A DNA stretch of 63,960 bases, counting the filler, from Basidiobolus ranarum (taxonomy: Eukaryota), in assembly GCA_040143965.1 (NCBI GenBank). It is 3 parts of 3 records of this genome, joined end to end, with 100 filler letters (N's around TTAATTAATTAA, not from the genome) between each part and the next. Parts side by side here need not be neighbours in the genome. Positions count along the whole stretch, not along the records: positions 22,829 to 45,527 come from JASJQH010007056.1; 2 more parts are not named here. One strand, given 5' to 3'. Shown here piece after piece: positions 6,557 to 43,578 of this stretch (position 1 is the stretch's first letter; every line of letters starts with the position of its first letter). The position numbers and the translations under genes were made by a program. The notes beneath the pieces are model-generated. The model did not search any database. It was not told the origin of the DNA and saw only the letters and a list, made by a program, of their open reading frames with translations.

Positions 6557-8500
6557 CTAAATAGGTGGCAACGAGCTAGGGCCCCCATTTCTGGTAGGCT
6601 CTGGCATGCGAAGGTGATAATCTAAAGAAGAACTGTGAGCTACAGCTAAGATAATATACAGACATACAGGAGATAGACTAACCTCCATTCTGAGTGATGT
6701 ATCTAACCCAAGGAAGAGCTTGGTATCCACTTTTCTCAACAACCTTCAAGTACCGAACTTGGATACCGGATGGAACGAAATAAGGGATTTCAAACTTGAC
6801 TGATATAGGAAGCTTTTTGTCCAACTCTTCTTCTGTTGGTGTAAGTATTGGTGATTAGTATCTGTATGTGGCATGTGATTGCCGTCGATATAACTAACCT
6901 CCTTTAACACTGGGGAGACTGAAGTGTGCGCGAAGAATGAACTCACGACTGCCAGGGAACTGCTTAATTTTCCATGCTATAGCCGACTTCTCTGGGGCAT
7001 ACGAAGCCGATCCCATAGAGCACTTGAATTTGGGTGAGGCAGCATCGTCAGGGACAGGAACAAGAATCTCTACATTATTGGCACTGGAGCGTCTTTTGAA
7101 TTGAGCCTTAGCCTTTAAACATATGGTTAATTACAGAGTCAAGGATTAAGAGATCAGGTCAGTGCGTACCTTAATCATATATTCGATTCTACCGGTGTGA
7201 TATTCGACGAAAGCTTCACACCAGATCAAAGGTTTAACCTACCAAGGGATCAGTAAAAGAGAGCAAATTAAACATGCCAACACCGTCCAATTACCTGAGT
7301 ATTCAATCTATAGCTCATCAATTCGAATTCACCATCCGGAGGAATAAACGAAATAGTTCTATCATTCTCAAAGCGTGACAAACGGACGCATTGATGGAAC
7401 TTGACATCTTCCATCTCGATGGCTTTTCCCTTACCAACGGCTTGGGACAACATACAGGTCAGAAGCACGAATTATCATTAGAGGATGCATGATGCACTTA
7501 CTTCTACCAATGTTCTCAAATAAAATCTTATCATTCAGGCCAAGTCTCAACTCTGGCATACCACTGAGGAAACAACGCATTTTGACGCTTCCAAGGATTT
7601 CACTTCTCAACACATTGCCATTAGCGTTGGCCTGGATAAAGAATCACACGGGATTTAATTATTAATCCTGCTAAATATAACAGTATAACATGATGCAGGT
7701 GACTCACCAACAAGTTGACCGACTCTACGACATCAAGAAACACTTCGTTCTTGCGATATCTAATTCCCTCGGTTCTCCAAGACACAGCGTTGGTAACTGC
7801 CATAGGGGGGCGTACTTGAACCTCAAGTTTGTAACCTTCCTGTGTAATATACCTAAAGAAATGATATCATGAGAATAGATGTCGAAATCACGAGGAGAAA
7901 AAGACTTACTCTTGAAGGACTTTTGTTTCAGTAGTTTGGGGATAACCAAAGTCCATCATCTCGTCAAGTAATTCATAGATGATGACAAAATTGTCACGGA
8001 TGGATTCCTCTTCAAGTGTCTTGAAATACTCTGTGAATACCTGTAAGAGAAGAAAAAGATACAAAGGGATTTGTTGAGTTTCGGAACCAATTCACTTCAG
8101 ATATCACTATAGTAAATACCTGAGTAAGCTTATGGAGAAACACCAATATGGTGGTAGCGTCAGAATTCTTTTTGGTAATAGCAAGGACTAAAATGAGGCA
8201 ATATTGGAGTTAAAGGATTCAAAAACAGGAGCTAGTTTTAAGTTCGAGTGAGTGTCGCATGACATTCCACTTTTTGGTATATATATATATTCAAAGGATA
8301 CGATAAAGATTGTTATGGCGAATGTAGAGATAATTGACTCCTTCGTGAGTAATAACTGGAGTTAGAGTTTGTTCTTCTTCCTCAGTTTCCAAAAGTAAAG
8401 GCATGAATTTTTCTACTGCCGTCATGGGAATATCTCCCCTGTAGTTACGAGAGATGAGGACTTTTCCCTTTAGGTCAAGGATGAAAACCGCGGAAGCCAT
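6557..8500 (-). CDS. APM1: AP-1 adaptor complex medium (mu1) subunit, multi-exon
   Basis: [116 protein letters not shown]. Confidence 0.96.
8188..8301 (-). other. U12-type (minor) GT-AG intron, intron 1 of APM1
   Basis: Minus strand: 5'ss GTATCCTTT, branch TCCTTTAAC (8209-8217), 3'ss TTTTAG. Splicing restores HNNLY-L-LAITKKN; read-through stops after RIL. Confidence 0.88.
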
Positions 8501-36371: not shown

Positions 36372-39300
36372 ATGAGCGAGACACTGAAAGACGTACCAGA
36401 AATATTCGAGAACGAACTCAAAGAGTCGTTAAACGTCAGAACTGAAGGGTTAGGTTGTTATTTGCAATTAACAGGAATATTTACTGTTATTGGTCTCATC
36501 CCACCACTTACATTGATAACCCCCACTATGTAGCCGCATACAGAGAGTTGGGTCCTCCAGATCTTTGCCATGTACTGAAGTCCTCAGGAAAACAAGGAAT
36601 TAAAGAGGTTTGTAACGTGAAATATAAACCTGACTCCGTCAAGAATACATCACACTTTTGCCTTCTTGCTATTCATTCCTAGTTTTTCGAATTCACCACT
36701 TATGAATTTTACACACTAGATTGGTTCTTATCATCACGTTATGGGAATTGACGCCTCCTCTTCCGCTAGTCTTGCGGCATATATAAACTCTTTAACCTAT
36801 TCATTGGTAAGGCCAATTATTTAACTCAAAGTTAAATTCTAGAATGAACAAACCTATTGATGATTTTAAACCAAGGACGATCCACATGGTTGGTTTGGCA
36901 AAGGAGCGGCCTGGAAAATTAGCTCTGGGGTTTACTGGTAAAGCGTCCACAAATCTCCTTTTACAAGTATATTAACTTAATATTTACTTAAATACCAGTT
37001 GTTATAATGCCTTCTCTCGAGTTGATGTCCGTGTTGAAGTTAATATACCTGGTGGTGTATCTAGTTATGTTGTTAACCAAGCAGGAGAGAAGTATGTATA
37101 CTAAATTTTCAACTATTAGCTCTATCTCATAGTGCTGAGTATGAACCTAATTTTGCTCTATTAGATCAGAGGCAAAGTCTGAGACTTGGCACGAAGCCCA
37201 TATTTCATCAATCCTTCGTTCCTTTCTTTATTCGGATGATGAGAATTATCGTCTTCTAGGACTAAGAAAACTCGACCCAATATCCAATCTCAACACAGAG
37301 AAGCGTTTCCTTGAATCTGCTGAACGAGTATTCTTTAAAGGTTTGTCATGTACCACTATTGCAAAAAGTCACTGAGCATCTATCCATTATTACATGTAAA
37401 AATAGGCTGGCAACTTGGAAGTGACCCTATGGTCCAAGTAGCCACCAATGCTCACAACTATCTCACGGATGGACTGATGAAGTATTTCAATCAAAGCTCC
37501 CGATTTGAAACAGCAGCGACTTTTTTCGAGAAACATATCCTTTTACTTGATCCCTGTCTTGAAATTTTGAAATATACCTGTCATCATTAACTCGTCGCAC
37601 TATATACTAAAGATCCAGAAGTAAGTGCTCTTCTAGCACAGTCGTACTTTGGCATGGGTAAATAAGTAAAATGATAAACGTCAATTTACCAACGTATCTT
37701 TTGTTTACCCGAGAACTTGATTATAGATGAAGAAATCAAAGGAGTCCGCGCTTTACATCACGCTTTGAAGAAAAATAATATGAGTTATCCATTACTGCAC
37801 GTGCAGTCAGACTTCTTATTAAGAAAGGTAATTACTACATTCCAACTAGCAGAGAGAGGCACATCAGTAACGACGAAATTTTAGAAACAAATGGACATTG
37901 CTTTACAGTTAGCAAAACAAGCAGTCAATAGCGCACCTTCCGAGTTTCTCACTTGGGCCAAGCTCACCGAGATCTATATGGAAATGAAGGACTTCAAATC
38001 AGTAAGAGGCTCTTTGTTGATCATATATTAGATGCATCGTCTAAGTACCTTCCATTGTGCTAGGCTCTTTTGACTCTTAACTCCTGCCCGATGTTCACGT
38101 TTACCGATAGAGATTTTCCTCGTATGCCTCAACCCCTAAAGGTTCATTTACCAACAAAATTTGAAGGGAACTATGGTCTTGGTCCAGAAGAAGACAATGA
38201 AAAAGAACTTGAAGTAACAAGTTTATATATATCATAGATAATCGATCAACATTCTCTTAGATAAAAATTGCTCACGTAGGTACAATCTGCTCTTGTTAGA
38301 CTTCCTGCACCTTCACTAAGAGGTACATTTGCAGCTGCATACAATATTCTTACTCTTCTAGTTTCGAAGATCGGATGGGACGAACTCCTAAGGTGTAGAT
38401 CTACTGTATTCGTTATGGAAGAAGAATATCGTCTTCAAAAGGCGCAAGAAGGACATAATTATTCTTCTGATGAGGAATGTAACAACACTTCTGATAACGA
38501 TGATGAGATACCAACCAGTATGAGAGAGCAGCATGCTGCGACTGATAAAGAATCTGTCGAGCAAGATGAAGACTTAAAGGGGCGGTCAAAAACGGATGTA
38601 ACTTCTGTAGAGCTTGATGAGCCAGTTTTAGACACAGCTCCTGAAGTAGCATCTACAAATATAGATCCTACTGATCTGACAAGCCAAGAAAGCCCCCTAG
38701 AGACTGAACATGAAGATAACTTGGATTCTCAAAAGGCGGATGCTGATAAAAACTCTATTATTGGTAATATGGAAAGTGTCGATCTTGACGATGAATTGCA
38801 AGATGAAATCGATAACCAAAATATAGGCAATACTGAGGAACAAGAGACTCGCAAAGCAGAAGACATTGTAGGAAAAGAAACAGAACTAGAAAATACAACC
38901 ATCGAAGATATCAAACTTGATGATAAACAAATCGAATCTACTGTTACACTTGTAGAAGATATCCCAGCCTCGATGTCTGCTCGTAAGAATAGTAATCAAT
39001 CTGAAAAGGTACGAACATTTGGTATATCTAACTTTTCTACTTAATGTGTTAACTTGCTACGTAGACTGAACAGGGTAAAAGAGATTTCATCACTACTTTC
39101 AGTAACAAGAGACTTTGTGAAAGGTAATATTAATTGGAGTTTTTTATGCTCAGGAGTTTACTAAAGATACTTTCATTGCGAACGTATTAGATGGCTGGAC
39201 AATCTATTTATGGTCCTTTACGAGGTATGAGGTAGAATCCTTGATAGTTTCTGAACAATGTTTTAATTACTTTCCAAAGGATTTGAGAGCATATACTGCT

Positions 39301-39867
39301 TGGAGAGCCGAAGCTACTCATGTCAAATCTCAACATCTGACCTACTCTAAAACCGGAGCTGAGTGGGAAGCACTTGGAGATTTAGGACTAAGACTACATC
39401 ACAAGGTTTGCTGTTACAGTAAGAAAAACCACATGTGCAATATAGTAATTTCGTATATTAACAGGAAGAAGCTAAAGAAGCGTATCAACGTTGCTTACAT
39501 AATAAATTCTCGGCTAAGGCTTGGGCAAAGTTGATGAAAGTATATTCGGATGAAGGCAACATCCAGCAAGCACTCTCAGCAATAGCTCAACTTTCGGTAC
39601 ATAATGATAGATGGTACAATGAAATGGTGGTAAGTAGAATATTCACTGTGAGGCCTTTATATAGATTTCTAAAGTATGTTTTGTTTGATGCGCATATAGT
39701 ATCCGTCTCTCATTAGCAATATTTTGAATAGCCTCATTAAGAATCATGGACTATCTAAAGTTCAAAATGTCTTGATATCAATGAATCTACCTACTCCAGT
39801 CTACAAACTGATAACTCGACACTTCACTTACGCAGAAGTATTCCAAATAGAAGGATACGAATGGTAG
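36372..39867 (+). CDS. Exomer cargo adaptor, ChAPs family (Bch1/Bud7-like), many exons
   Basis: RELGPPDLCH, GIDASSSASLAAYIN, YCCYNAFSRVDVRV, ALLTLNSCPMF, IGWDELLRCRSTVFVMEEEYR, KRLCERWLDNLFMVLYEDLR, EWEALGDLGLRL. Confidence 0.93.
37535..37600 (+). other. U12-type AT-AC intron in the ChAP gene
   Basis: 5'ss ATATCCTTT, branch TCATTAAC (37584-37591), 3' end GCAC. Removal gives FFEK-L-YTKDPEV in frame; retention hits TAA inside the branch site. Confidence 0.92.
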
Positions 39868-41337: not shown

Positions 41338-42008
41338 AGTTAGTGTAAGACTATGAAGTTGAAAATGGCGTACACATGTAAATCAATAAAGTATATCAGG
41401 TTTTTTCACGCGTGAGAGGATCTTCTGCAATAGTCAATTAAACAGTTCGCAACTATTTTTGGCTTTTGTGTAACATGGGGGAAGCAGTTTCAATATCAAC
41501 CGTACACATCTCTCCTATTCTTATAGAACAAATAAGCATAGAGATTCTTCTCTGCTCTAACTTGAAAAGAATCGTTGCTCATTTGGAATTTCATGATGCT
41601 AATTTTGACCTCAAGTGTAACCGCTTCGCATTTTGACACCTTTAGTGTCACCAGCTAGTCGTTTACTTTTACTAAATTAGGCTAAATGGTACCATAATGC
41701 TTCTACCCAACTTGAGATAAGATGCGAGCAAGAGCACTTTGCAACGAGATTGATTTGCAAATCATCACTAGATTTCAGGTAAATTTCAATCAGCTTGAAA
41801 TAGAACTGCAAAACATAATCGTTGTTTGCAGCAGGAGTCAATCGAAAATAAGGCATTAAGATTTGACAAAAGTTTATCTGAAATATGTGTGTATTGTTTC
41901 TTACACATCTGGGATCAGAGAGTATTTCACAGAGTAGTGATATTAGAAGCTTAAGATTTATAAACTTAGTTCCATGGTTTTCTAATAGATAATATATGGT
42001 TCAAATAT

Positions 42009-43578
42009 TCATTCTTTCACAATTGAAGTGACAAGTTTTTCCTTTTTCAAGTCAATGCACAACCGATCCATAATTTTCACTAGCATTACATTGCCTCCAA
42101 GTCGCGCGATCTCCTGGCGTGCCTGTTCTTCGTAGACTTTAAGACGCTCTAGGGTGTATTGAAATGAGTTGGTTTTTTCCATTAAATGAACGGCGAATTT
42201 CTTGACATCTTTATCTAGTGTCCGCTGTTTGAGAATATCTGTTGGAGCTTATGAATGAGAGGTTGAATTGGCCTTACTGTGTACTTGATGAACTTACTGA
42301 GTAACTGTCTATTAGAGGTGTCCGCTCGGACGCAGTGAATCACAGGGAATGAGAATTTTCCTTCAGTGAGATCTTCACAGTATCCTTTGTTGTCGGAATA
42401 CTAATATCCATCAATAGTTAGCCTCCATAAATTCTTTATCAATCTGTCATCAAACTTACAGAATCTGATTTAAGGTTCATGAGATCGTCTCGAATCTGAA
42501 AATGAATTCCGATCATGTTCACTAGAGGAACGTAATCTCTAACAAGAAACACTTAGTATACTGTAGTCTTAGGAGATCCTGTCATATTTAAAGTATATTA
42601 CACGGTGGAAGCGCTGGCTTCTTGCATCAGTTTCACTGCTAGTCTTAGCAGGCCTCCCGTTTCTAGTGTGCATAGGTTAGTTGAGAACTCGAATCGAAAG
42701 GACCGAAATGATGCTAAATGCACTTACTATTTCCAACCATTTGAATGTACTCTTCTTCAGTAGGACATGTAACCGTATCTCTCCAAAAAAGATCCATGCC
42801 TTGACCTCGGTGCAAGTTCAACAATTCCTCTAAGTTAACAGGAAAAATTTTAGTTGTAGATCTATAGGCTAACTTAACAACATCTATTCTACCTGTAAAT
42901 ATTTGAACCATCTTGGGATTCTTTAATTTGCTAATCTCATCAAGAGCCAGGAAATATATGTAGTTTGCTGAGTTGATGGTGATGGGTACGCCATATATTT
43001 TATGCGCCACTATAAGTTAAGCTCATTAATAAAATATTACAAAGATTGTTTGCATGTTGATTTACTTGTATTCACCTGGAACACCACGTCTAAGTTTAGA
43101 GTCGTCTTCAACATCGTCGATACTATTGTTCCATAGTTAGTTATACTCAAAAGGAATAGAGATGAAGTGGGATCCTATGACTTACAGTAAACTAGCAGTA
43201 TGAAGCATCTCGACTACTCTAGTAATAACCCCCAGTTCCGGTTTTGGCACATGCAACCATAGATCAAAAGCATCAATCAAGAGAGTACGGATCTCTTTTC
43301 CTGGATATTGACGTAGATAATTATACGGCTCTAAGAGGATCTATTATTTGAGGAGAGGTTAATATTTTGACTTTAGCTAGAAAGGGTATAAGATACATGA
43401 TATTCTAACTATGCAAATCACCGACCACTCAAAGCAAACATATTTGAGTTACAAGTGAGCAAGGAGAGAAAGTGAAAATCGCTGGCCTCAACACAAAGAA
43501 TATTTCGCTTTAAAGTACCTTTTCGGGGTCCTCTAGATTTTTAGCATCTTTAAAGTCGGAGAAATGATGTTCAGCCAT
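42009..43578 (-). CDS. BTS1: Geranylgeranyl diphosphate synthase, multi-exon
   Basis: [75 protein letters not shown]. Confidence 0.95.

Follow-up and report, generated by a model that had tools for sequence, protein, structure and literature searches.

Intron 7 of the exomer cargo-adaptor (ChAP) gene of Basidiobolus ranarum is, in our assessment with high confidence, a genuine phase-1 intron of the U12-type AT-AC class that is spliced by the minor spliceosome, most likely old and probably not gained within Basidiobolus. It lies in a window of 63,960 nt, filler included, which is the whole stretch of B. ranarum DNA that was analyzed and which joins three parts of three records of assembly GCA_040143965.1. 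The evidence comes from the intron itself, from the exon borders defined by homologous proteins, and from the traces that the same position seems to have left in the ChAP protein models of other early-diverging fungi.

The AT-AC intron and its host gene

Read directly from the sequence, a 66-nt AT-AC intron in phase 1 occupies positions 37535-37600 of the plus strand. U12-type AT-AC introns have the consensus ATATCCTT at the 5' splice site and TCCTTAAC at the branch site, with a branch distance of about 10-15 nt. The features of the locus that bear on this comparison are as follows.

36372-39867 (+): ChAPs gene (exomer cargo-adaptor, Bch1/Bud7-like), from start codon to ortholog-like stop, assigned from Pfam and the deposited protein
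37406-37534 (+): exon 7, its last base being the C that starts a Leu codon; PF09295 profile positions 143-194
37535-37543 (+): 5' splice-site motif ATATCCTTT, by direct reading; matches /ATATCCTT
37584-37591 (+): branch-site-like motif TCATTAAC; 7/8 positions of TCCTTAAC, one mismatch
37588-37590 (+): in-frame TAA inside TCATTAAC, reached after 18 codons when the upstream frame is continued into the intron
37599-37600 (+): terminal AC dinucleotide at the 3' end of intron 7, by direct reading
37601-37657 (+): exon 8, a mini-exon of 57 nt; encodes P0001 (the deposited protein) residues 235-253, PF09295 positions about 195-210
37658-37726 (+): intron 8, an ordinary GT-AG intron at a position common to many other fungal ChAP loci

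Nine nucleotides (37592-37600) lie between TCATTAAC and the end of the intron, both A residues of the motif are 10-11 nt from the 3' end, and no pyrimidine tract follows the motif. Intron 7 therefore resembles U12-type AT-AC introns in its termini, its 5' site, the type and distance of its branch motif, the absence of a pyrimidine tract and its non-zero phase; it differs from them in the one mismatch of the branch motif and in being very short, its 66 nt matching the size of the neighboring major introns (55-112 nt). Its GC content is 0.35, that of the neighboring introns 0.27-0.39.

Following the known pathway, U11 and later U6atac would pair with the ATATCCTTT 5' site, and the partner of U12 would be the branch site TCATTAAC, at 10-11 nt from the 3' end. 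Joining of exons 7 and 8 would then unite C and TA in a Leu codon, and a continuous ChAP protein would be made. Were intron 7 retained, translation would end at the branch-site TAA after 252 residues (234 native and 18 extra), and this product, with most of the ChAPs region missing, would probably be non-functional. The original prediction had described a 66-nt AT-AC intron with U12-type signals in a ChAP gene, and every detail that it described proved accurate; its further statement that retention truncates the protein through the TAA of the branch site also holds, since the TAA at 37588-37590 is read in frame.

The identity of the host gene was established at the profile and protein levels. 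When stop-to-stop ORFs from 37151-38435 were submitted to a profile search, six exon ORFs matched Pfam ChAPs (PF09295) at 32-74.6 bits (gathering cut-off 20), and the matches fall in profile order. The matched profile positions 143-194 stop just ahead of intron 7 and positions 211-250 start again after intron 8, while the residues of the intervening exon 8 are conserved among homologs. A 42-residue exon translation used as a query found, at 100% identity, a deposited protein of 775 aa (P0001, named [quoted passage not shown]) and two B. meristosporus ChAPs proteins at 83% and 79% identity. P0001 maps onto the window exon by exon as 16 blocks of 100% identity, which gives 15 junctions. On these sequence grounds the host gene is a ChAP of the single type, that is, an exomer cargo-adaptor subunit. 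It resembles the ChAPs family of the yeast exomer (Bch1, Bud7, Chs6 and Bch2; PF09295) in its six exon ORFs above the Pfam cut-off, and it shares 50-67% identity with Mucoromycota, Glomeromycota and Basidiomycota ChAPs over residues 140-330; unlike the yeast proteins, it is of a single, pre-duplication type with a long acidic insert. This insert is of low complexity, spans about 38440-39000 (+) within the coding exon 38280-39008, and varies greatly among the Basidiobolus paralogs, both in its length and in its sequence.

Two further observations concern the ordinary introns of the gene. The positions of the GT-AG introns 37658-37726 and 37341-37405 (after residues 253 and 192, respectively) are common to many metagenomic fungal ChAP loci, where they are visible as split or read-through tblastn matches (e.g., L014, L015, L019, L020 and L026). 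The "variant 2" protein P0001 retains the last intron, a 70-nt GT-AG intron at 39630-39699 (+), and ends prematurely at 39714-39716, whereas the B. meristosporus orthologs continue past this stop and the ORF at 39700-39867 (+) encodes a C-terminus that matches them. Because of this read-through and the matching C-terminal ORF, the main isoform of the B. ranarum ChAP gene probably has 16 introns.

Exon borders and the splicing machinery

For each of the 15 junctions, all donor/acceptor pairs that reproduce P0001 exactly were listed. A GT-AG solution is available at each of the other 14, with donors of the GTAAGT, GTATGT, GTTTGT or GTAA types and acceptors ending in AG. At junction 7 only three equivalent shifts reproduce P0001 (AC-GC, CA-CA and AT-AC), none of them GT-AG and none GC-AG; the protein is obtained solely by excising these 66 nt, no more and no fewer, and no recognized boundary class other than AT-AC fits. 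The deposited model was made from the same DNA and is therefore not fully independent support; PMC10079182 yielded nothing on the annotation of B. ranarum. Comparison with other proteins leads to the same borders: the spliced product runs ungapped through the junction in 74 of 109 representative homologs (residues 218-268) and in 197 of 235 homologs (residues 224-262), and the second B. ranarum paralog and the two B. meristosporus paralogs have identical junction residues.

The U12-like motif on its own is weak evidence, as it occurs at chance level in the window. RTATCCTT has seven matches against 5.67 expected, and at least seven were found in 30 of 100 shuffles, so that there is no enrichment. 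The compound pattern (ATATCCTT, a branch-like motif, 6-12 nt, AC) occurs once in the window, at intron 7; in 200 first-order Markov simulations its mean was 0.205, and 34 of them contained at least one. What takes intron 7 beyond chance is that the motif coincides with exon borders defined by homology. The AT-AC intron at 37535-37600 in the ChAP gene is confirmed as real, with its borders drawn from this protein-level comparison.

Other occurrences of RTATCCTT were rejected as intron starts. The one at 42380 (+), GTATCCTT, runs antisense to a coding exon of the gene at 42000-43340 (-), whose ORF translations, judged by eye, resemble a polyprenyl (geranylgeranyl) diphosphate synthase. At 39858 (-), 50381 (-), 54525 (+) and 56937 (+), the coding context lends no support to an intron. 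The occurrence at 8301 (-) was retained as a candidate and is taken up below. No match came from an Rfam scan of the window.

Could a nearby major-type intron be used instead, the AT-AC appearance being coincidental? There are 76 in-frame, stop-free alternatives to AT-AC removal in all, including the GT-AG candidates 37556-37612 (57 nt), 37556-37621 and 37482-37625, and the chance-level frequency of the bare motif would fit such a reading. However, every in-frame GT-AG or GC-AG alternative removes conserved residues or adds residues unseen in correctly modeled homologs; in the three candidates named, residues 235-239 are replaced or deleted. The best of them, 37556-37612, has a donor (GTCTTG) unlike the 14 other donors of the gene, and the AT-AC product is present in three Basidiobolus paralogs as well as in the deposited protein, which makes this reading extremely improbable. 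Removal of the same 66 nt by the major spliceosome draws on the existence of rare U2-type AT-AC introns. Against it, the 5' site is a full U12-type ATATCCTTT rather than a U2-like one, and the TCCTTAAC-like motif 10-11 nt from the 3' end is followed by no pyrimidine tract. The genus, moreover, is reported to have minor snRNAs and hundreds of minor introns in the available text of two surveys (PMC10639083; PMC11347168), and we regard a U2-type mechanism as highly unlikely.

U12-type splicing of intron 7 thus remains the preferred reading, and to it belongs the question of whether retention is put to use. A putative regulated retention of intron 7 would give the minor spliceosome control over exomer output and, through it, over the traffic of chitin synthase. 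Retention does yield an in-frame stop, and a retained-intron isoform of this gene has already been modeled, in "variant 2", which concerns a different intron, the last. Yet an in-frame TAA is expected in about one of three frames for a motif containing TTAAC, and minor splicing in Rhizophagus is described, in the part of the study available, as lacking proliferation-linked regulation (Larue and Roy, PMC10639083). We consider such regulation very unlikely. Our literature search found no relevant paper joining the exomer with the minor spliceosome.

The same junction in other fungi and the age of the intron

Four public ChAP models contain Y-I-L or H-I-L right after the conserved F-E-K/Q, exactly at the junction.

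Ambispora leptoticha (Glomeromycota): junction read-through model, [HY]-I-L
Apophysomyces sp. (Mucorales): junction read-through model, [HY]-I-L
Umbelopsis vinacea (Umbelopsidales): junction read-through model, [HY]-I-L, eight-residue read-through
Syncephalis plumigaleata (Zoopagomycotina): junction read-through model, [HY]-I-L

Y/H-I-L is the phase-1 translation of N|ATATCCTT, and B. ranarum intron 7, when read through, gives H-I-L-L. As background, [HYND]IL occurs at 0.0008 per position (142 occurrences in 179,017 residues of 280 proteins), and a pattern search found [HYND]IL after F/Y-E/D/A-K/Q/R/S/P only in the junction cases. In Umbelopsis sp. AD052 this place is taken by the normal five residues instead of the eight-residue read-through of U. 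vinacea; the U. vinacea model was the one informative addition from a third homolog search, centered on the Ambispora read-through region, which returned mostly Basidiomycota.

Other models are disturbed at the same place in different ways. In both Paraglomus species, Funneliformis geosporum and Ambispora gerdemannii, 10-20 residues are deleted at the junction; in F. caledonium and Spinellus the sequence there is scrambled, and one Pilobolus model lacks one residue. Counted by group, with groups taken from source names and 187 proteins without usable names left out, the junction anomalies are distributed as follows.

Glomeromycota: 6/8 models
Mucoromycota: 4/37 models
Other Zoopagomycota: 2/4 models, one of which, from Coemansia (P0016), is divergent rather than clearly mis-modeled
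Chytrids: 0/2 models
Other Basidiobolus proteins: 0/3
Dikarya: 0/120 models

P0252, P0322 and P0353, whose BLAST alignments break, are normal at the junction by MAFFT and were counted as normal. In total, 12 of the 51 ChAP models from outside Dikarya and Basidiobolus (about a quarter) are damaged exactly at the junction. That annotation restricted to GT-AG introns would mis-model this gene, as had been expected from the B. ranarum sequence, is borne out in other species, by the Glomeromycota, Mucoromycota and other Zoopagomycota counts given above, and not in B. ranarum itself, whose deposited protein carries the exact AT-AC junction.

Metagenomic sequences were covered by one scan with a 22-sequence ChAP alignment, which gave 74 loci, some of which may be cDNA. 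Five of these (L016, L021, L038, L069 and L073) fall short of the junction and were left out; none of the 69 loci that cover it has an intron or indel at the AT-AC position, and no early-diverging fungal locus with an AT-AC intron was found among the 74.

The read-through models, together with the 0/120 of Dikarya and the 0/69 of the metagenomic loci, argue for an old AT-AC intron that appears to have been kept in phyla with a minor spliceosome and to be missing where this machinery is gone. The cross-species claim of age is drawn entirely from protein models. On this basis, intron 7 is most likely old: Glomeromycota, Mucoromycota and Zoopagomycotina would have received it from the same ancestor as Basidiobolus, and lineages that lack a minor spliceosome appear to have deleted it. 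Its presence in early-diverging fungi is probably ancient, and its absence from Dikarya probably a loss. A more specific proposal, which we hold to be reasonably likely, dates the AT-AC intron of ChAP, as a relic, to the common ancestor of Zoopagomycota, Mucoromycota, Glomeromycota and Dikarya or to an earlier time. Under this proposal, every lineage in which the minor spliceosome survives would have kept the intron at the same phase-1 Leu codon, Dikarya would have lost it by clean deletion rather than by conversion, and it would be a recurrent cause of wrong ChAP models, recognizable by Y/H-I-L.

The opposite possibility, a recent gain specific to the Basidiobolus lineage, had been part of the original prediction. 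Room for it is left by the low minor-intron density reconstructed for ancestral Zoopagomycota against the top fungal density in B. meristosporus, as given in the available text of PMC10639083, and the clean junctions of the Neoconidiobolus, Dispira and two chytrid models are compatible with the intron being either present or absent. It is contradicted by the read-through of the same 5' motif, as [HY]-I-L at the identical codon, in four genera of Glomeromycota, Mucorales, Umbelopsidales and Zoopagomycotina, which represent three other lineages. Deletions or scrambling exactly there in Paraglomus (two models), Funneliformis (two) and Ambispora gerdemannii, with no such anomaly in the 120 Dikarya models, speak against it as well, and we judge a recent gain very unlikely.

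An old intron could reach further back than the fungi. According to the part of PMC6057913 that was available, Chs5, and hence the exomer complex, is fungal, whereas ChAP occurs in diverse eukaryotes, is traced by inference to the last eukaryotic common ancestor, with losses in animals and plants. The original view of the exomer as a fungal system accordingly stands for Chs5 and the complex and fails for ChAP. Since ChAP is reported in the last eukaryotic common ancestor, intron 7 may predate fungi; and since the family is reported there as missing in animals and land plants, intron 7 falls outside the classical animal and plant sets of minor introns.

Relation to known minor introns and a second candidate

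Minor introns are well documented in the genus. In B. meristosporus, 249 of them (0.554% of introns, the highest density in fungi) were reported by Larue and Roy (2023, PMC10639083), who made classifications of all annotated introns available in an online database and in Dryad, and 237 were reported by Olthof et al. (2024, PMC11347168), together with U11, U12 and U6atac genes and a putative divergent U4atac, as far as the available text of both papers goes. Intron 7 resembles these introns in coming from the same genus, where two ChAP paralogs of B. meristosporus agree with it in their protein junction; it differs from the catalogued ones in having been read here in B. ranarum. The available text of the two papers contains no mention of ChAPs or the exomer. 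Nevertheless, the suggestion that the position is uncatalogued is doubtful: B. meristosporus, with the same junction in two paralogs, was surveyed intron by intron twice, and per-intron catalogues (introns.info, Dryad and MIDB) may already list the orthologous introns. Intron 7 is ordinary for its genus and is already spliced in a public model.

Rhizophagus irregularis, an early-diverging fungus, is likewise reported to have 205 minor introns and a full minor-snRNA set (Larue and Roy, 2023, PMC10639083, available text). Its ChAP proteins have normal junction residues, while 6/8 Glomeromycota models are damaged there, and the presence of the intron is proposed for the other Glomeromycota only, from their protein models.

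The new content is modest and consists of the apparent conservation of the intron across early-diverging fungi and the recurrent damage to annotation at its position. A position seemingly common to early-diverging phyla and missing in Dikarya would offer an old minor intron in the ChAP family as a clean case open to checking, one that the usual conservation sets of animals and plants cannot show and that bears on the question of intron loss versus conversion. It would also be a concrete case of GT-AG-only pipelines corrupting the proteins of fungi that bear minor introns and leaving a readable signature in them; if this is true, a search of protein databases for Y/H-I-L could by itself reveal mis-annotated minor introns.

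The window contains a second candidate minor intron, of the GT-AG subtype of U12-type introns, at 8188-8301 (-), in an AP-1 mu-subunit gene that runs from about 8500 downwards. It is 114 nt long and in phase 1, and our literature search found no paper on a U12-type intron in AP1M1. Homology to solved AP-1 mu-1 structures (E 3e-23) stops exactly where GTATCCTTTG starts, at 8301. About 22 nt separate TCCTTTAAC from the TTTTAG acceptor, a spacing that is long for a minor intron, and the exon that follows the candidate aligns weakly with AP-2 mu residues 63-88 (E 0.85).
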